Of a stretch of DNA of 34,477 nucleotides, positions 584-8,557 are shown piece after piece. Made by a program: the position numbers and the translations under genes. Every line of letters starts with the position of its first letter. Position 1 is the stretch's first letter. Origin of the DNA: a virus (Duplodnaviria; Heunggongvirae; Uroviricota; Caudoviricetes); IMG/VR virus record IMGVR_UViG_2667527818_000007; one strand, written 5' to 3'. The notes under the pieces were generated by a model. The model made no database searches and was not told where the DNA came from. It worked only from the letters and a program-made list of their open reading frames with translations.

Positions 584-1597
584 TTACTCTACTGTGGACA
601 CTGTGTGGACACTCTCGGCCTCAGTACCACCTCTTAGCGGATTAAGAGAAATGGCGTCCTGAAGGTACTCTGGCGCAAAATGAGCGTAAACCATAGTTTG
701 CTCAATCCGCGTGTGACCTAGTATCCGTTGTAGCGTGATAATACTTCCTCCATTAATCATGAAATGAGTGGCAAAGCTGTGCCTTAGTGCATGTGTGGCT
801 TGCCCCATTGGCAAATCCGGTTTTATTGCTTTCATTGTTCGTCTGAAGCGAGGGTAATCAGCATCAGGGAATAAAAAACCTCGTTTGTTATCCGCGATCA
901 TTTTGGCAACAGCCTCTGAGATCGGGACGGTGCGTGGTTTGTTTGTTTTCGTTTTAACAAACGTGACGCGGTTATGGATGATATTTTCTGCTTTCAAACG
1001 AGCTGCTTCTCCCCAACGTGCTCCAGTACTCAGGCAAAGAATCGCAATCTTTTTGTTGTCGCCGTCAAGAGCAGCAAGCAGTAAGGCAATTTCTTCCTGC
1101 GTGAGATAGCCTGTGTCTGGTTTTTCCTCCTTAAGCCTTTTTGTCCCTCTGATAGGGTGCTCACCAAAGAATAACTCCGCTTCAATCAGGGCTGTAAACA
1201 TGCCGCTAATACATGTTAAATCACGATTGATACTCGAAGGTTTAATACCCTGACTTCTTCGGGTGGCGCAGTACTGGCTGATAAGCGATTTCGTAATTTG
1301 AAATGCGCATGGGTCATTCGTTATTTTTGTGAAGATTTCAATTTTTCCAAGATTAGATTTCCCATGCTCTTCGTGTTTACCCTTTAAATCCCACCAGATC
1401 TGTGTCAGCTCCGACAGACGTCGCTTGTCTGTTGGTTTTGATAGCCATTCTTTATTGTGGTGGTTGTACAACGTGTATTTCTCGAAAGCGACAGCTTCGC
1501 TTTTCTTATCAAACTTCCTACGGATGCGTTTTCCATTACGTCCAGTAGGGCGGATGTCCACTTCATATCGACCATCATCGAGTTTTTTGATTGCCAT
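584..1597 (-). CDS. int: tyrosine integrase (337 aa)
   Basis: Same length as P2 Int; C-terminal catalytic region with HALRHSFATH...LGHT...VYAHF (H-x-x-R and Tyr); adjacent to the att core. Confidence 0.9.
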   Translation of the reverse strand: MAIKKLDDGRYEVDIRPTGRNGKRIRRKFDKKSEAVAFEKYTLYNHHNKEWLSKPTDKRRLSELTQIWWDLKGKHEEHGKSNLGKIEIFTKITNDPCAFQITKSLISQYCATRRSQGIKPSSINRDLTCISGMFTALIEAELFFGEHPIRGTKRLKEEKPDTGYLTQEEIALLLAALDGDNKKIAILCLSTGARWGEAARLKAENIIHNRVTFVKTKTNKPRTVPISEAVAKMIADNKRGFLFPDADYPRFRRTMKAIKPDLPMGQATHALRHSFATHFMINGGSIITLQRILGHTRIEQTMVYAHFAPEYLQDAISLNPLRGGTEAESVHTVSTVE

Positions 1598-1712
1598 CAG
1601 AAAACCCTCCGAGTGGTGTGTTTTTTTGCGACTACTAATCGCTTTTTTCGTGGTGGCTGAAATTTAGCCACCAATAGTAGGCACTTGTGATGAATATATT
1701 CACGATGAATTG

Positions 1713-2012
1713 TTAACCAGTCTTTTGACCGGAGTGGGGCGACGTTGTTTCGTTTTGCCCAAAGTGTGCGAGAGCGGGCGCAATTTGCCCGGACTCAGGA
1801 GCGATCTGATTGGTCATGAACCATAAAGTGTATTTGGTGAATTGTGGGGTCTGCAGGATGTTCATCATGACATCTGTTGGAGGTGTTGAACGACCACTTT
1901 CATAGTAACTCAGCGTGCCATACGGAACCCCTGTTAAATCAGCAAGTTGTTGTCTGCTCAAATACTCTGATTTTCGCATTAAGACTATCTTCTCGCTTAT
2001 CGTGTTTGACAT
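1713..2012 (-). CDS. C: immunity repressor C (99 aa, helix-turn-helix)
   Basis: 99 aa with HTH segment LSRQQLADLTGVPYGTLSYYESG; divergent from cox, upstream of int as in P2. Confidence 0.8.
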   Translation of the reverse strand: MSNTISEKIVLMRKSEYLSRQQLADLTGVPYGTLSYYESGRSTPPTDVMMNILQTPQFTKYTLWFMTNQIAPESGQIAPALAHFGQNETTSPHSGQKTG

Positions 2013-2126
2013 GGTGTTTAGATCTCAATAGTATTTAGTTTAGATGTAGATTGTTTAGTGCTTGGATGTGGGCACTAAAAGGCATTATAAGACATTAAAC
2101 GCAATTCATGAGGGCTAGAGGACGAC
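2013..2126. promoter_or_regulatory. divergent Pc/Pe promoter-operator region of the immunity switch
   Basis: Intergenic between divergent C and cox; direct repeats gtttagat at about 2016..2023 and 2038..2045 (22-bp spacing) plus further tttag copies, consistent with C-repressor operator half-sites. Confidence 0.5.
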
Positions 2127-2402
2127 ATGAGCAAGCAAGTAACACTCATGACTGATGCGATTCCTTATCAGGAGTTCGCAAAACTAATAGGAAAATCGAC
2201 AGGAGCGGTTCGTCGGATGATCGATAAAGGAAAGCTGCCTGTAATTGATATGACCGATCCACAATCAGCTTCAGGTCGTGCAGGTGAATATTGGGTATAC
2301 CTTCCGGCATGGAATAACGGACTAAAACTGGCTTATGAAAGCCGACCTAAAGAGATTCGTGACGGCTGGTTGATGTGGTTAGGTCTCGGTGAACCACGTT
2401 AA
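2127..2402 (+). CDS. cox: Cox excision/transcription control protein (91 aa)
   Basis: 91 aa, first gene of the early rightward operon, same length and position as P2 Cox. Confidence 0.75.
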   Translation: MSKQVTLMTDAIPYQEFAKLIGKSTGAVRRMIDKGKLPVIDMTDPQSASGRAGEYWVYLPAWNNGLKLAYESRPKEIRDGWLMWLGLGEPR

Positions 2403-2412
2403 GGAGAACCGT

Positions 2413-2583
2413 ATGAATGAGCCTCGTTGTATTGCTCAGTTACTGCGTAACGAAAGCCCCAGGGCGATTGACTTCACCATCACCCACGGTAAGGGGCGTA
2501 AGGGAATCATTATCCGCACCAAAAAACAGAGTCCGTTAAAAAAGGCTCTGACCTTTCTGAAAAGCCGGAGGGTATGGAAATGA
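2413..2583 (+). CDS. small early protein (56 aa; P2 orf78-like)
   Basis: ATG at 2413 preceded by strong SD aaggag (2401..2406); the tracked ORF from 2389 is probably an upstream extension. Confidence 0.5.
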   Translation: MNEPRCIAQLLRNESPRAIDFTITHGKGRKGIIIRTKKQSPLKKALTFLKSRRVWK

Positions 2584-3080
2584 CAGTGATGACGCTCAAT
2601 CTCGTTGAAAAACAGCCAGCAGCTATGCGCCGGATAATTGGTAAGCATCTTGCCGTTCCTCGCTGGCAGGATACATGTGATTATTATAATCAGATGATGG
2701 AGCGCGAACGGCTAACAGTTTGCTTTCATGCGCAGTTAAAACAGCGTCACGCAACGATGCGTTTTGAAGAAATGAACGACGTCGAACGTGAACGACTGGT
2801 ATGTGCAATTGATGAATTGCGTGGGGCATTCTCAAAACGTCGTCAGGTCGGTGCAAGTGAGTATGCATATATTAGTTTTTTAACAGTCAGTCAGCGTCGT
2901 ACTTTATTTATGCATGCCGGATTGACTGAAAAAGAATTTAACCAGCCATACTGGCGAATTAATGAAGAGTCATGTTACTGGCGTGATGCTTTATTCCGTG
3001 CATTACGTGAATTATTCAGCCTGTTTGAGTATGCACCGACAATTCTGACGTCGGTAAAACCAGAGCAATATCTGCATTAA
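2574..3080 (+). CDS. B: replication protein B-like (168 aa; helicase-loader equivalent in P2)
   Basis: Position and length match P2 gpB (about 166 aa) in the early operon. Confidence 0.65.
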   Translation: MEMTVMTLNLVEKQPAAMRRIIGKHLAVPRWQDTCDYYNQMMERERLTVCFHAQLKQRHATMRFEEMNDVERERLVCAIDELRGAFSKRRQVGASEYAYISFLTVSQRRTLFMHAGLTEKEFNQPYWRINEESCYWRDALFRALRELFSLFEYAPTILTSVKPEQYLH

Positions 3081-3143
3081 GTAATTAACCAGAGTTTTTA
3101 ACGCACTTAATCGTGCGGGGCTTCTTTTTGCCTGGAGAAAGTT

Positions 3144-3368
3144 ATGCATACAGTTTCTGAAAATCAGTGCGGTAAATACGCATTACTGCTGCAACAGGCC
3201 AGAACCGAAGCACAGGCCGACGCTGCGACGCGCTTTTCTTCTCATCTTGATGCCATGATTCGCCACATCACAAAGGCGGAGTTATCCCGCGTGGAGATAG
3301 TCGAGCTGCTCAGTCAGGAGTCGGAAAAATTTCACAATATCGGATTGTCTCGCGGGGAGGTGCTTTGA
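3144..3368 (+). CDS. early-operon hypothetical protein (74 aa)
   Basis: ORF in the early operon; position equivalent to P2 orf80. Confidence 0.5.
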
Positions 3369-3670
3369 TGTCCTGTTCTCGTTCAGTTGTATTACTGAAT
3401 AACGCCTTAAAAATCGCCGTTATGAAAAATGGCGATTTGTCTCTTATTCAACTTGGTCTTGATAAAGAAAAACGCGAAATAACTGAGTCTGTTATCGCGA
3501 TTTATCAGAACGAATTAAACCTCCTGTCTGATGTGGTCAATTTGCTTGTTAAACGCGCTGTGTTTCACAAGCAAATCTCCTCCGTGGATGAACTGACGAA
3601 ATTAACGACAGAAATCGCCAGCTATTGCGCTGATGAATTTAAAAACCTTAACGACAAAAGGAACTGGTAA
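3365..3670 (+). CDS. early-operon hypothetical protein (101 aa)
   Basis: Translationally coupled (overlapping stop/start) in the early operon; position of P2 orf81. Confidence 0.5.
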
Positions 3671-3894
3671 TGCCGGACAACGTAGATTTTATTCAGGCAC
3701 AACAGGCTGAATTACTGGAGCGCCAGATTAACGCGGCAAGGGTAAAACATTGCGGTGCTTCTGCGATGGTTTGCGAAGAGTGTGACGCGCCAATACCTGC
3801 TGCCCGTCGTGCGGCTTATCCGTCAGCCACGCGTTGTGTTTCCTGTCAGTCAGTTTTTGAAGCAAAAAACAAACATTACCGGAGAACGGCATGA
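3670..3894 (+). CDS. TraR/DksA-family C4 zinc-finger protein (74 aa)
   Basis: CEEC-x17-CVSC motif (CxxC...CxxC) typical of the TraR/DksA zinc finger; position of P2 orf82. Confidence 0.65.
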   Translation: MPDNVDFIQAQQAELLERQINAARVKHCGASAMVCEECDAPIPAARRAAYPSATRCVSCQSVFEAKNKHYRRTA

Positions 3895-4166
3895 GTATTC
3901 GTATTGAAATTGGCGAACGTTATGTCGTTACCAGTGACAGCTTTCAGTTTATTCTCCACGAGAAAAAGAGAGCTGAAAGCGGTAAAAACGCCGGTCAGGA
4001 ATGGCTGGCGGTGGTTGGTTATTACCCGAAATTAAGCCAGCTCGTTTCCGGCCTGATGCATCACGATATTCTGACCGGAAGCGCAAAGTCTTTTGCTGAT
4101 TTAAACGCGCAGGTTGAGCAACTCAGCAAGCGTTGTTCAGAGGCTTTTGGCTCATATGGCCGTTAA
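3891..4166 (+). CDS. early-operon hypothetical protein (91 aa)
   Basis: Coupled ORF upstream of gene A; position of P2 orf83. Confidence 0.5.
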   Translation: MSIRIEIGERYVVTSDSFQFILHEKKRAESGKNAGQEWLAVVGYYPKLSQLVSGLMHHDILTGSAKSFADLNAQVEQLSKRCSEAFGSYGR

Positions 4167-6432
4167 AGCCTCCGGGCGTTTTGTCCCTCCGTCAGCATTT
4201 GCCGCAGGCACCGGTAAGACGTTTACCGGTGCTTATGCATGGAACGCGCCACGCGAGGCCGTCGGGCGCGAAAGACCCCTTACACGTGACGAGATGCGTC
4301 AGGTGCAAGGTGTTTTATCCACGATTAACCGCCTGCCTTACTTTTTGCGCTCGCTGTTTACTTCACGGTATGACTACATCCGGCGCAATAAAAGCCCGGT
4401 GCACGGGTTTTATTTCCTCACATCCACTTTTCAGCGTCGTTTATGGCCGCGCATTGAGCGTGTGAATCAGCGCCATGAAATGAACACCGACGCGTCGTTG
4501 CTGTTTCTGGCAGAGCGTGATCACTATGCGCGCCTGCCGGGAATGAATGACAAGGAGCTGAAAAAGTTTGCCGCCCGTATCTCATCGCAGCTTTTCATGA
4601 TGTATGAGGAACTCAGCGATGCCTGGGTGGATGCGCATGGCGAAAAAGAATCACTGTTTACGGATGAGGCTCAGGATCACCTGTATGGTCATGTTGCTGG
4701 CGCTGCACGAGCTTTCAATATTTCCCCTCTCTACTGGAAAAAATACCGTAAAAGACAGATGACCACGAGGCAGGCATATTCTGCCATTGCCCGTCTGTTT
4801 AACGATGAGTGGTGGACTCATCAGCTTAAAGGCCAGCGTATGCGCTGGCATGAAGCGTTACTGATAGCTGTCGGGGAGGTCAATAAAGACCGTTCTCCTT
4901 ATGCCAGTAAACACGCCATTCGTGATGTGCGTGCGCGCCGCCAGGCAAATCTGGAATTTCTTAAATCGTGTGACCTTGAAAACAGGGAAACCGGCGAGCG
5001 CATCGACCTTATCAGTAAGGTGATGGGCAGTATTTCTAATCCTGAAATTCGCCGGATGGAGCTGATGAACACCATTGCCGGTATTGAGCGTTACGCCGCT
5101 GCAGAGGGTGATGTGGGGATGTTTATCACGCTGACCGCGCCGTCAAAGTATCACCCGACACGTCAGGTAGGAAAAGGCGAAAGTAAAACCGTGCAGCTTA
5201 ATCACGGCTGGAACGATGAGGCATTTAATCCAAAGGATGCGCAGCGTTATCTCTGCCGTATCTGGAGCCTGATGCGCACGGCATTCAAGGATAATGATTT
5301 ACAGGTCTACGGTTTGCGTGTCGTCGAGCCACACCACGACGGAACGCCGCACTGGCATATGATGCTTTTTTGTAATTCACGCCAGCGTAACCAGATTATC
5401 GAAATCATGCGTCGCTATGCGCTCAAAGAGGATGGCGACGAAAGAGGAGCCGCGCGAAACCGTTTTCAGGCAAAACACCTTAACCGGGGCGGTGCTGCGG
5501 GATATATCGCGAAATACATTTCAAAAAACATCGACGGCTATGCACTGGATGGTCAGCTCGATAACGACACCGGCATGCCGCTGAAAGACACTGCAGCGGC
5601 TGTTACCGCATGGGCGTCAACGTGGCGCATCCCGCAATTTAAAACGGTTGGCCTGCCGACAATGGGGGCTTACCGTGAACTACGCAAATTGCCGCGCGGC
5701 GTCAGCATTGCTGATGAGTTTGACGAGCGCGTCGAGGCTGCACGCGCCGCCGCAGACAGTGGTGATTTTGCGTTGTATATCAGCGCGCAGGGTGGGGCAA
5801 ATGTCCCGCGCGATTGTCAGACTGTCAGAGTCGCCCGTAGCCCGTCGGATGAAGTTAACGAGTACGAGGAAGAAGTCGAGAGAGTGGTCGGCATTTACGC
5901 GCCGCATCTCGGCGCGCGTCATATTCATATCACCAGAACGACGGACTGGCGCATTGTGCCGAAAGTTCCGGTCGTTGAGCCTTTGACTTTAAAAAGCGGC
6001 ATCGCCGCGCCTCGGAGTCCTGTCAATAACTGTGGAAAGCTCACCGGTGGTGATACTTCGTTACTGGCTCCCACACCTTCTGAGCACGCCGCAGCAGTGC
6101 TTAATCTGGTTGATGACGGTGTTATCGAATGGAATGACCCGGAGGTCGTGAGGGCGCTCAGAGGTGCATTAAAATACGGCCTGAGAAGACCAAACCGTCA
6201 GCAAAGAAACGGAAGCCCGTTAAAACCGCATGAAATTGCACCATCGGCCAGACTGACCCGGTCTGAACGATTGCAAATCACCCGTATCCGCGTTGACCTT
6301 GCTCAGAACGGTATCAGGCCGCAGCGATGGGAGATTGAGGCGCTGGCGCGTGGGGCAACCGTAAATTATGACGGGAAAAAATTCAGATATCCGGTCGCTG
6401 ATGAGTGGCCGGGGTTCTCGTTACCCATTTGA
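4156..6432 (+). CDS. A: rolling-circle replication initiator gpA (HUH endonuclease)
   Basis: HUH-type motif HHDGTPHWHMMLF and tyrosine-containing YIAKYISK. The tracked ORF starts at a TTG at 4114; the ATG at 4156 (MAVKASGRF...) is the more plausible start. Confidence 0.85.
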   Translation: MAVKASGRFVPPSAFAAGTGKTFTGAYAWNAPREAVGRERPLTRDEMRQVQGVLSTINRLPYFLRSLFTSRYDYIRRNKSPVHGFYFLTSTFQRRLWPRIERVNQRHEMNTDASLLFLAERDHYARLPGMNDKELKKFAARISSQLFMMYEELSDAWVDAHGEKESLFTDEAQDHLYGHVAGAARAFNISPLYWKKYRKRQMTTRQAYSAIARLFNDEWWTHQLKGQRMRWHEALLIAVGEVNKDRSPYASKHAIRDVRARRQANLEFLKSCDLENRETGERIDLISKVMGSISNPEIRRMELMNTIAGIERYAAAEGDVGMFITLTAPSKYHPTRQVGKGESKTVQLNHGWNDEAFNPKDAQRYLCRIWSLMRTAFKDNDLQVYGLRVVEPHHDGTPHWHMMLFCNSRQRNQIIEIMRRYALKEDGDERGAARNRFQAKHLNRGGAAGYIAKYISKNIDGYALDGQLDNDTGMPLKDTAAAVTAWASTWRIPQFKTVGLPTMGAYRELRKLPRGVSIADEFDERVEAARAAADSGDFALYISAQGGANVPRDCQTVRVARSPSDEVNEYEEEVERVVGIYAPHLGARHIHITRTTDWRIVPKVPVVEPLTLKSGIAAPRSPVNNCGKLTGGDTSLLAPTPSEHAAAVLNLVDDGVIEWNDPEVVRALRGALKYGLRRPNRQQRNGSPLKPHEIAPSARLTRSERLQITRIRVDLAQNGIRPQRWEIEALARGATVNYDGKKFRYPVADEWPGFSLPI

Positions 6433-6691
6433 GTAAAAACACAACGTAATTTGATATGGCATTGAATGGCTTATGCGGAGCAGTTATGGGGCAGCAGAAG
6501 GTCAATAGCATGCTGAATTAGAAGGCTAAATGCTATTGAGTGACTAGCATGTCGGTAAGGACAGCCGTTTGATCCGGGTCATAAAAGGCCATCCATTTAG
6601 TCTAATAAAATCATTGCGGGTAACCTTATGTCGACGCATAATTCGTCTTGAGCGAAGTCTTGTCAGTCTTTCATCGTATTGATGATGGGCG

Positions 6692-6722
6692 CAAAAAAAC
6701 CACCCTGGCAGGTGGTTTTTTT
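6692..6722. terminator. bidirectional intrinsic terminator
   Basis: aaaaaaaccacc-ctggca-ggtggttttttt: GC stem flanked by an A-run and a T-run; sits between the end of the A operon (+) and the 3' end of the small minus-strand ORF. Confidence 0.65.
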
Positions 6723-6734
6723 GTTTGAAGCATA

Positions 6735-6848
6735 TTAAAGCATAATGCTGACATTGATATTACTGACGTTTACTGACAAACCACTCGGACTACCGTTTGG
6801 ATAGCCAAAGAGGGCCAGAACGAGAATGCAGTAATAGCATTTCTTCAT
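6735..6848 (-). CDS. candidate small hydrophobic peptide (37 aa; MKKCYYCILVLALFGYPNGSPSGLSVNVSNINVSIML)
   Basis: ATG at 6846..6848 (minus) preceded by strong SD (caggaggcaat-ATG) and followed by the bidirectional terminator; hydrophobic N-terminus. The longer 88-aa tracked ORF is probably an upstream extension. Confidence 0.4.
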   Translation of the reverse strand: MKKCYYCILVLALFGYPNGSPSGLSVNVSNINVSIML

Positions 6849-7326
6849 ATTGCCTCCTGTAAGTAGAGGGCAACTTCCACCGGTATATGCGCTTCTTAGG
6901 TGGAATGACTTTTGAGCGAAGTCTTGCCCTGAAATAATGCTCTGTTTAAACGCAAAGTGATTTGGCATATCACCGAACAGAGAGCCGGAAAAACACAACA
7001 TATAGTATGTCGTTGTTTCTAGACATACATTCTATGTTGTGTAACAAGGGCTTTGCATTAAACATGTTTGAGATTTTATTGATGTAGCTCAAAGTAAAAA
7101 ACAGAGACTACGGATGATAAGGTCTTGAAAGCAATGTAAATTTTTTAAAGTTGCCAATTGCTTAAAAATGTACAGTTGCGGTATGGCGTACTTAAAAAGC
7201 TATGCATGCAACAAGTGAATGTTTTTGCATGCGTTGGGGATGTCCGTTCAGGCTGCGTGCGGTCAGGACTGGTGCGGATCCATAGTATCTATGCAACTGC
7301 ATTAAAACCGCCCTGTGAAGCGGGCG

Positions 7327-7345
7327 GGCGAGGCGGGGAAAGCAC
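7327..7345. other. cos site (19-nt cohesive-end sequence ggcgaggcggggaaagcac)
   Basis: Matches my recollection of the P2 cohesive end; located upstream of Q/P at the vegetative genome end, as expected. Confidence 0.6.
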
Positions 7346-7522
7346 TGCGCGCTGGCGGTGGTGCTGATTTTATTTTTTCAGCGTCTCAGCGTCTCAGCGC
7401 GTCGTGACGGCGTTTGGATTGTGCGCCGGGGCGTTGGTGTGTCTGCGGGGTGTTTTGTGCGGTGGTGAGCGTGTGAGGGCGTGATGACGGGGTGTAAAAA
7501 AGCCGCCCGCAGGCGGCGATGT

Positions 7523-8557
7523 TCAGCCGTTGTCAGTGTCCAGTGAGTAGTTTTTAAAGCGGATGACCTCCTGACCGAGCCAGCCGTTTATCTCGCGGAT
7601 CCTGTCCTGTAACGGGATAAGCTCATTGCGGACAAAGACCTTTGCCACTTTCTCAATATCACCCAGCGACCCGACGTTCTCCGGCTTGCCGCCCATCAAC
7701 TGAAAGGGGATGCGGTGCGCGTCCAGCAGGTCAGCGGCGCTGGCTTTTTTGATATTAAAAAAATCGTCCTTCGTTGCCACTTCACTGAGCGGGATAATTT
7801 TAATGCCGTCAGCTTTCCCCTGCGGGGCATAGAGAAACAGGTTTTTAAAGTTGTTGCGGCCTTTCGACTTCACCATGTTTTCGCGAAGCATTTCGATATC
7901 GTTGCGATCCTGCACGGCATCAGTGACGTACATGATATATCCGGCATGAGCGCCGTTTTCGTAATACTTGCGGCGGAACAGCGTGGCCGACTCATTCAGC
8001 CAGGCAGAGTTAAGGGCGCTGAGATATTCCGGCAGACCGTACAGCTCCTGATTAATATCCGGCTCCAGCAGGTGAAACACGGAGCCGGGCGCGAAAGGTG
8101 TCGGCTCGTTGAAGGACGGCACCCACCAGTAAACATCCTCCTCCACGCCACGGCGGGTATATTTTGCCGGTGAGGTTTCCAGTCTGATGACCTTACCGGT
8201 GGTGCTGTAACGCTTTTCCAGAAACGCATTACCGAATACCAGAAAATCCAGCACAAAGCGGCTGAAATCCTGCTGAGAAAGCCACGGGTGTGGGATAAAC
8301 GTTGAGGCCAGAATATTACGTTTGACGTAAATCGGTGAGCTGTGATGCACGGCAGCACGCAGGCTTTTTGCCAGACCGGTAAAGCTGACCGGTGGCTCAT
8401 ACCATCTGCCGTTACTGATGCACTCGACGTAATCCAGAATGTCACGGCGGTCGAGTACCGGCACCGGCTCACCAAAGGTGAATGCCTCCATTTTCGGGGC
8501 GCTGGCGGTCATTTTTTTTGCCGCAGGTTGCGGTGTTTTCCCTTTTTTCTTGCTCAT
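7523..8557 (-). CDS. Q: portal protein gpQ (344 aa)
   Basis: Same length as P2 Q; precedes the terminase gene on the minus strand, reading toward cos. Confidence 0.85.
   Translation of the reverse strand: MSKKKGKTPQPAAKKMTASAPKMEAFTFGEPVPVLDRRDILDYVECISNGRWYEPPVSFTGLAKSLRAAVHHSSPIYVKRNILASTFIPHPWLSQQDFSRFVLDFLVFGNAFLEKRYSTTGKVIRLETSPAKYTRRGVEEDVYWWVPSFNEPTPFAPGSVFHLLEPDINQELYGLPEYLSALNSAWLNESATLFRRKYYENGAHAGYIMYVTDAVQDRNDIEMLRENMVKSKGRNNFKNLFLYAPQGKADGIKIIPLSEVATKDDFFNIKKASAADLLDAHRIPFQLMGGKPENVGSLGDIEKVAKVFVRNELIPLQDRIREINGWLGQEVIRFKNYSLDTDNG

Follow-up and report, generated by a model that had tools for sequence, protein, structure and literature searches.

Gene content of the A-cos interval

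The 34.5-kb stretch of DNA analysed here (IMG/VR record IMGVR_UViG_2667527818_000007; hereafter the window) is a P2-like prophage in which replication gene A stops at position 6432 and the 19-nucleotide (nt) sequence GGCGAGGCGGGGAAAGCAC lies at 7327-7345, which we take to be the P2 cohesive end (the cos-like site). Between the two is a self-contained module of ~0.5 kb (~6603-7146), made up of a 37-codon gene for a small hydrophobic peptide on the minus strand, a predicted small RNA (sRNA) on the plus strand and a terminator common to both. The module was compared across more than 60 homologous loci, with substitution and identity figures taken from 10 clade representatives. An alignment of 16 alleles showed conservation setting in abruptly at TAATAAA (6603) and fading after ~7142. 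The predicted features of the module and its surroundings are collected in Table 1.

In P2 the A-cos interval holds tin and old and is a known defence hotspot in which exclusion genes are located (PMC9122126). An original prediction, made from the letters of the window, had described the interval as free of large cargo, holding only a 37-codon hydrophobic open reading frame (ORF) with a strong Shine-Dalgarno (SD) sequence, a 15-nt repeat and a bidirectional terminator, and all of these were present where it had placed them. Exact copies of the repeat TTGAGCGAAGTCTTG lie on the plus strand at 6648-6662 and 6912-6926; no further site was found in the window with up to two mismatches allowed, and none of 100 dinucleotide shuffles yielded two repeat matches. 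The ORF list and the Prokaryotic Genome Annotation Pipeline (PGAP) records agreed on the lack of large cargo. The only larger ORFs in the interval are an 88-amino-acid (aa) same-frame extension of the 37-codon ORF and a 69-aa ORF that crosses cos, none of 191 E. coli records has a PGAP feature at the position of the cassette, and in ~80 E. coli genomes the gpA-cos interval had no annotated gene. A 2026 survey reports that in every P2-like prophage at least one of the two main defence hotspots contains genes (PMC13586616).

Table 1. Positions of the cassette features and of neighbouring elements in the window.
Feature	Positions	Strand	Remarks
Predicted sigma-70 sRNA promoter	6603..6642	+	UP-like, -35 and -10 elements
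sRNA promoter elements	6603-6609; 6614-6619; 6637-6642	+	TAATAAA; -35 TTGCGG; 17-nt spacer; -10 CATAAT
Repeat copy 1 / sRNA seed	6648..6664	+	Exact repeat 6648-6662; one G·U pair extends pairing to 6664
Predicted antitoxin-like sRNA	6649..6722	+	~73 nt; 5' end placed from the promoter
Bidirectional intrinsic terminator	6692..6723	both	Perfect 13-nt inverted repeat 6692-6704 / 6711-6723
Predicted peptide mRNA	6692..7021	-	~330 nt; 5' untranslated region (UTR) ~174 nt; both ends predicted
37-codon ORF MKKCYYCILVLALFGYPNGSPSGLSVNVSNINVSIML	6735..6848	-	ATG at 6848, stop 6735-6737
SD AGGAGG and anti-SD GCCCUCU	6853..6871	-	SD 6858-6853, anti-SD 6871-6865; predicted pairing
Leader hairpin L2	6875..6905	-	Stem UUCCACC/GGUGGAA, conserved loop GAAGCGCAxAUA
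Repeat copy 2 / target	6912..6928	-	64-80 nt upstream of AUG
Leader hairpin L1	6940..6982	-	Outer stem CUCUGUU/AACAGAG, inner stem GGUGAU/AUCACU
nrdDG-like promoter region	7029..7146	-	-10 TAGAAT (7034-7029)
Spacer adjoining gene A	6433..6602	+	Outside module
Portal gene Q	8557-7523	-	

The 37-codon peptide gene

The ORF begins 4 nt downstream of the SD motif AGGAGG and encodes a peptide with basic N-terminal residues, a run of ~13 hydrophobic residues and a tail rich in serine, asparagine and glycine. Its length was 37 codons in 63 of 63 loci; one database protein has 38 codons, and a Salmonella paralogue described below has 39. The translations follow the pattern M[KN][KR]xxxCILVLxLFGYPxGSxSGxSxxVSxxxxxxxL, with CILVLxLFGYP as the conserved core. 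Substitutions at the first, second and third codon positions numbered 373, 272 and 721, an excess at third positions, and 409 differing codon pairs were synonymous. The ORF and the repeat, whose conservation in related prophages the original prediction had proposed as a check, were conserved, both repeat copies even in modules that are otherwise 66-75% identical. These comparisons indicate that the ORF is a protein-coding gene under protein-level constraint.

The exact peptide is present on at least 1,000 contigs in public databases, only as a hypothetical protein; ECW_m2278 of E. coli W, a standard laboratory strain, is for example an identical 37-aa peptide with this annotation. It had been predicted to match no recognised toxin family, and searches of the peptides against Pfam, NCBIfam, PHROGs and PADLOC indeed returned no family, with nothing at E <= 10 in Pfam or NCBIfam; two PHROG matches at E 0.2-0.3 were disregarded. 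No more than seven relatives came out of a phmmer search over 1.84 billion representative proteins. The 88-aa upstream extension is called by some gene callers and was rejected on the variation of its N-terminal part between alleles; a protein homologue search with it as query returned near-identical entries only. AlphaFold, run on the single sequence, gave an N-terminal helix only, at low confidence (predicted local distance difference test score, pLDDT, of 60), and we predict that the peptide forms an N-terminal membrane-anchor-like helix.

A predicted sRNA and a shared terminator

Repeat copy 1 is preceded on the plus strand by an element that we read as a sigma-70 promoter, because its hexamers are 94-100% identical while the spacer between them is only 52% identical at a constant length. 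Copy 1 starts 7-8 nt past this conserved promoter, and we place the +1 position at ~6649-6650. Copies of the cassette without gene A, on plasmids and in an N15-like element, have this promoter too. In the original prediction copy 1 belonged to the 3' UTR of the A operon, which may hold in part. A promoter and terminator scan found no terminator-like site in the spacer between gene A and the module, so A-operon transcripts may run into the sRNA region and read-through is possible as a second source of the RNA. It is not the sole source on our reading, since the conserved promoter 7-8 nt upstream would make copy 1 the 5' end of a separate sRNA.

The same consensus scan flagged neither the sRNA promoter, whose -35 element matches at three of six positions, nor the shared terminator, which we believe was missed because A/T pairs lengthen its stem and consume the T tail. 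The single promoter match that it did return, on the minus strand at 6666-6638, is not conserved and was set aside.

The predicted sRNA consists of a 5' seed, a middle hairpin (6666-6690) and the terminator hairpin with a U7 tail. Its minimum free energy is -29.3 kcal/mol (z = -4.45), and none of 200 shuffles folded as well. The three-part fold recurred in 12 of 13 alleles even with the middle hairpin only 46% identical in sequence, and for 8 of 11 alleles the stability of this hairpin exceeded that of shuffles (p < 0.06). No Rfam family matched the sRNA at E <= 0.06; a scan of 6000-7800 at E <= 1 gave sub-threshold matches to RNAI and the Phe leader, which were discounted as terminator-driven.

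The terminator is built around CCACC/GGTGG, with A7 on one side and T7 on the other, for which reason it is expected to work in both directions. It is 97% conserved, with an identical 36-nt stretch in the Salmonella paralogue, and is common to both convergent transcripts, so that their predicted 3' ends are complementary over ~32 nt.

The structured leader and its predicted pairing with the sRNA

The peptide mRNA is predicted to start at ~7021, on the basis of the -10 element and the geometry of a homologous nrdDG promoter described below, and to end at the terminator. Copy 2 sits within the resulting 174-nt structured leader, in keeping with the claim that it belongs to the 5' leader of the mini-gene; it is 95% conserved and partly presented in a small predicted hairpin (GACU/AGUC, 6907-6923). 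In the consensus leader structure calculated with RNAalifold from 14 alleles, 96.8% of cells pair. Hairpin L1 shows compensatory changes at four pairs, with 100% of cells paired, and L2 at three. The pairing GCCCUCU/AGGAGGC between the SD and the anti-SD, helix 6 of the same calculation, had 93% of cells paired. The leader has nine compensatory pairs altogether, a number reached by none of 500 shuffles, and slid controls gave 0-2.

A plus-strand RNA ending at the terminator had been proposed to be complementary to this leader, and the duplex is predicted in every allele. It spans 14-18 bp, and none of the 14 distinct pairings of a copy 1 with a copy 2 has lost it. Internal differences between the copies are all G·U-compatible, with an sRNA U opposite an mRNA G at three positions and a G opposite a U at one, and none has the disruptive (A·C) orientation. 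In one locus (L064) position 16 is altered in both copies. The Salmonella paralogue seed, TGAGCAAAGCCTTACC, differs from the window seed at three positions (G6A, U10C and G14A), so that the paralogue sRNA is predicted to mismatch the window target. The paralogue target carries the same three changes, restoring 16 Watson-Crick pairs; such co-changes of seed and target are countable across the two subfamilies only. The seed-target duplex anchored the best predicted sRNA-mRNA interaction in 10 of 10 alleles tested, and nothing consistent across alleles was found for additional pairing near the ribosome-binding site.

Co-varying direct repeats could equally be two sites for one protein, and in P2-like prophages the block lies at the conserved edge of a hypervariable hotspot. 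The repeats might then be DNA-level protein-binding or recombination sites that frame cargo exchange, with the ORF and the RNA folds incidental. We consider this extremely improbable. The cassette is conserved outside P2, its ORF has a codon-position bias, its RNA helices carry compensatory changes, and the +1 predicted for a conserved promoter falls exactly on copy 1. The copy differences, moreover, are solely G·U-compatible, and we favour pairing between RNAs because DNA-level repeats would not predict this wobble-only orientation.

The 13-nt seed core GAGCGAAGTCTTG shows 100% identity across all alleles, be they from Escherichia, Klebsiella, Enterobacter, Citrobacter or metagenomes, in contrast to the diverging remainder of the sRNA. 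Invariance across genera is expected where a conserved host target also constrains the seed, and it would fit an sRNA that mainly regulates host or phage mRNAs in trans, the leader pairing being secondary or sponge-like. This explanation seems improbable to us. The window has no other seed site within two mismatches, whatever the context, the sRNA is always accompanied by a target copy at constant distance, and the seed changes of the Salmonella paralogue are matched in its cis target, whereas a host target would not follow them. We regard it as very probable that the module is an sRNA-controlled mini-protein cassette.

An nrdDG-like promoter upstream of the peptide gene

The region upstream of the peptide mRNA is homologous to the promoter of nrdDG in E. 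coli K-12, with 92 of 120 positions identical in the window (7029-7146) and 111 of 140 in another P2-like allele (77-79%). This homology came to light through a weak BLAST match of the Salmonella paralogue and spans from the -10 element to ~-125; the -10 TAGAAT and a block upstream of it are conserved across alleles. In K-12 the promoter, which FNR activates and NrdR represses, drives ribonucleotide reductase genes, whereas here its homologue stands before a 37-codon ORF.

At the nrdDG promoter, FNR site-2 at -64.5 is necessary and sufficient for activation, and site-1 is located at -33.5 (PMC10245656). Site-2 in the window, TTGAGCTACATCAA (7092-7079), is identical to its nrdDG counterpart and has the same spacing to the -10 element. 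A site-1-like sequence, TTAATGCAAAGCCC (7061-7048), is degenerate in the window allele (TTAAT...) and near consensus in Klebsiella alleles (TTGATGCAAATCAC), and both half-sites are conserved in all alleles. A +1 at 7021 would put the centres of the two FNR-like sites at exactly -64.5 and -33.5. The peptide gene is thus probably induced without oxygen via FNR.

The probe sequence used for NrdR box 1 of nrdDG (PMC12176259) allowed this element to be compared as well. NrdR box 1, CACTATATATAG, is kept in Klebsiella and Salmonella alleles and degenerate in the window (7044-6992, minus strand), where a 13-16 nt insertion alters its spacing to a box-2-like TATGTTGT. We make no claim of NrdR regulation, because box 1 is degenerate and the spacing is altered. 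A palindrome at 6993-7002 / 7033-7042 may be a remnant of the NrdR boxes. The conserved block at 7051-7099 was also considered as a plus-strand promoter or IHF site; none was seen by eye, and the block is explained by the nrdDG homology.

Distribution and genomic contexts of the cassette

The core of the cassette matched by BLAST in 152 of 5,426 complete E. coli genomes, always within P2-like prophages, ~85 of them at >=99% identity and ~65 at 91-94%. Homologues of 66-92% identity are found among these prophages. In diverged P2-like prophages the same ~0.55 kb follows directly after A. One prophage allele group has cargo after the cassette, consisting of an ImmA/IrrE peptidase gene and a hypothetical gene. 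The window's own allele group has nothing between the cassette and cos, and ~180 nt separate the end of the cassette from the cos-like site. A search of species-representative genomes found one locus, and metagenome contigs supplied additional alleles.

Approximately 390 Klebsiella and Enterobacter IncF plasmids carry the cassette in non-phage contexts, at ~75% identity and with unrelated flanking genes. It is also carried by Citrobacter and Enterobacter plasmids or contigs. A full cassette (peptide gene at 2243-2353), encoding a peptide 59% identical to that of the window, adjoins a protelomerase gene (36-1892, with TelK domains) in an N15-like element (L043), and this neighbour indicates that the cassette is placed in an N15-like linear phage-plasmid. 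Salmonella IncFIB plasmids were found, through the identical terminator, to harbour a divergent paralogue with the same layout. It is present in 16 plasmid records (for example L065, NZ_CP030198.1, 1100-1620) and has the same terminator, the same nrdDG-like promoter and a 39-aa peptide, MDRRDCMCLFILTLISHLITGQESWMVYLNHISLTVQFY, that occurs exactly on at least 781 contigs. Occurrence in P2-like prophages, plasmids and an N15-like phage-plasmid indicates that the cassette is a mobile unit that is not specific to this prophage.

Several neighbouring observations concern individual loci. In E. coli ESBLEC_HM50 (L002, ~1501-3988) an insertion of ~94 nt lies in the cassette before the cos-proximal sequence, and a reverse transcriptase gene (retron-like cargo) is located past the cos-like sequence, not between A and cos. 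Plasmid pJ53-KPC_Vir, from an E. coli J53 transconjugant (L007), has a Klebsiella-type allele and, ~1 kb from it, a PGAP-annotated dinQ type I toxin gene (5399-5536), so that two type I-like loci are clustered there.

The spacer between gene A and the module is ~80% conserved among P2-like prophages and missing from plasmid copies. It contains a 10-bp hairpin (6502-6539) with a shorter stem in other alleles, probably a chance or weak feature. A near-repeat of 14 nt, AAAAACACAAC[G/A]TA at 6435-6448 and 6989-7002, is not conserved in other alleles and was attributed to chance.

Comparison with known type I toxin-antitoxin systems

The par locus of pAD1 has convergent promoters, a bidirectional terminator, direct repeats read both ways and an SD-sequestering stem (PMC7472228). 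With par/Fst of Enterococcus faecalis pAD1 and its Gram-positive relatives the cassette shares convergent promoters, a shared terminator with complementary 3' stem-loops, a direct repeat transcribed in opposite directions that yields a second complementary region, an intramolecular SD-sequestering stem (predicted here), a peptide size of ~33-37 aa and carriage on a plasmid or phage. The two differ in detail. There are two repeats in par (DRa and DRb) and one in the cassette; the par repeats overlap the translation initiation region, whereas that of the cassette lies 64-80 nt upstream of the AUG; and the par RNA is ~40 nt long, whereas the cassette sRNA has ~73 nt with an extra middle hairpin. 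Fst has a PXXXG motif and a charged C-terminal tail, both of which are lacking from the cassette peptide, which also has no Pfam match.

The hosts differ as well, those of par being Gram-positive and that of the cassette enterobacterial, and the T1TAdb paper gives layouts with a 3' overlap for Gram-positive families only (PMC8594479). Membership of the Fst family was rejected on the single distant repeat, the missing PXXXG motif and charged tail, and the lack of homology. The SprA1/SprA1as pair of Staphylococcus aureus, in which SprA1as targets the ribosome-binding region, differs from the cassette in being Gram-positive and has no sequence relationship to it. What SprA1/SprA1as shares is a convergent arrangement with a 3' overlap and pairing outside this overlap by the 5' part of the antisense RNA (PMC8594479).

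The protein most similar by design is TimP of the TimP/TimR (ryfA) system of Salmonella and E. coli, which has 38-41 aa and an uncleaved signal-like anchor (PMC7667032). Both peptides have a signal-anchor-like N-terminus and a polar tail rich in asparagine and serine, an sRNA pairs with the 5' UTR of timP and is predicted to do so in the cassette, and their N-termini look alike (MKIRCFCIVLI in K-12 timP, L044 1202-1327, versus MKKCYYCILVL in the window, 6738-6848). The timR gene is divergent and upstream of timP, whereas the cassette sRNA is convergent and downstream. Membership of this family was rejected: the NCBIfam TimP model NF040796 scores TimP at 86.8 bits and the cassette peptides not at all at E <= 10, hhalign gave a probability of 9-10% over 11 columns, and the N-terminal likeness is statistically unsupported. 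The TimR/ryfA RNA model Rfam RF00126 had no match at the locus.

TisB/IstR-1, ZorO/OrzO, ShoB/OhsC and DinQ/AgrB share with the cassette a trans complementarity of ~15-20 nt in a long structured 5' UTR, far upstream of the ribosome-binding site. The tisB and dinQ promoters respond to a global regulator, LexA, and the cassette promoter is likewise predicted to respond to one, FNR. In the TisB, ZorO, ShoB and DinQ systems the sRNA is divergent, 5' of the toxin gene, with no shared terminator (PMC8594479). Assignment to this group was rejected, as the cassette has no NCBIfam match and a convergent layout and shares only the position of the 5' UTR target. Hok/Sok was likewise rejected: there is no Pfam or NCBIfam Hok match and no conserved overlapping leader ORF, and the antisense RNA is on the 3' side.

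Proposed function of the cassette

The original prediction had likened the locus to a trans-pairing type I toxin-antitoxin layout, and each element of that layout is supported by the comparison of homologous loci. We think it reasonably probable that the cassette is a type I toxin-antitoxin pair, with the peptide as predicted toxin and the sRNA as predicted antitoxin. In this scheme the ~330-nt mRNA would be transcribed leftward from the nrdDG-type promoter with its FNR sites, as its homology suggests, and end at the bidirectional terminator. It would encode the 37-aa protein with its N-terminal membrane-anchor-like helix, the coding status of which is backed by comparative evidence. Leader hairpins and SD/anti-SD pairing, supported by covariation, would leave the primary transcript poorly translated. 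The ~73-nt sRNA would run rightward from its own promoter to the same terminator, as the conservation pattern and the predicted fold suggest.

On the comparative evidence, the 5' 14-18 nt of the sRNA would base-pair with a leader site that lies 64-80 nt before the AUG. This pairing may block a standby or activation site, as in systems of the tisB/zorO type, or provoke cleavage, and no peptide would be made. The complementary terminator stem-loops may start the contact between sRNA and mRNA, as in par. The peptide itself would enter the inner membrane and be harmful there. Should the sRNA be the shorter-lived of the two RNAs, peptide synthesis and membrane damage would become possible once the element is lost or transcription is shut off.

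Several points weigh against a toxin-antitoxin pair. The whole scheme is predicted from sequence and comparison, and the wobble-orientation argument amounts to ~4-8 independent events only. The hydrophobic stretch is short (~13 residues), and the tail is polar and uncharged, unlike those of Fst, Hok and TisB. The target is distant from the ribosome-binding site, which leaves the route of repression conjectural. Invariance of the seed across genera is unusual for type I families, and there could be an additional host-encoded target. Finally, a promoter of the FNR type hints more at regulation for some physiological purpose than at a simple addiction module.

Some of these points would equally fit a non-toxic small membrane protein tuned by the sRNA, an accessory factor that is possibly anaerobic, such as a membrane-protein modulator or a superinfection-exclusion peptide. 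The peptide has neither a full-length transmembrane helix nor a charged tail, homology to the FNR-activated nrdDG promoter points to conditional expression, and many sRNA-regulated small proteins are non-toxic. The position in the P2 hotspot of exclusion genes (PMC9122126) is also in its favour. We nevertheless judge a non-toxic role to be unlikely, given that the cassette resides on large conjugative plasmids and an N15-like phage-plasmid, which are typical carriers of addiction modules, and that known type I systems likewise combine SD sequestration and a long, structured leader with a dedicated antisense RNA. TimP, which comes closest to the peptide in design, is a toxic protein (PMC7667032).

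For a toxin-antitoxin pair, the likely role is stabilisation of the carrier plasmid, phage-plasmid or prophage, because the distribution of the cassette fits a function in keeping such elements in place. A role in phage exclusion at the P2 defence hotspot is speculative. A more specific picture can be drawn only tentatively, and we regard it as doubtful: an unrecognised enterobacterial type I family with par wiring may have captured an FNR-activated nrdDG-type promoter and be armed only without oxygen. As the sole content of the gpA-cos interval (the gpA-gpQ hotspot) in ~80 P2-like prophages, it might then be a minimal abortive-infection or prophage-addiction system.

Significance

Literature string searches for words from the peptide, the seed, the terminator and the accession numbers returned nothing relevant, and the peptide, if it is a type I toxin, would be the first one known to us behind an FNR-type promoter. 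The peptide matches no known family, and the balance of the comparisons leans toward a new family of type I toxin-antitoxin-like modules. In P2-like phages the gpA-gpQ locus is regarded as a hotspot whose defence cargo is protein-coding, and the 2026 survey reports it never to be empty (PMC13586616); gene-based surveys would miss cargo made of an RNA and a mini-protein, such as this constrained cassette. If the assignment is true, Enterobacteria too would have the par-type layout, in which convergent genes share a terminator and a direct repeat is present. Hundreds of Klebsiella IncF plasmids of clinical relevance also carry the cassette without annotation, and it would bear on plasmid persistence if it is an addiction module.

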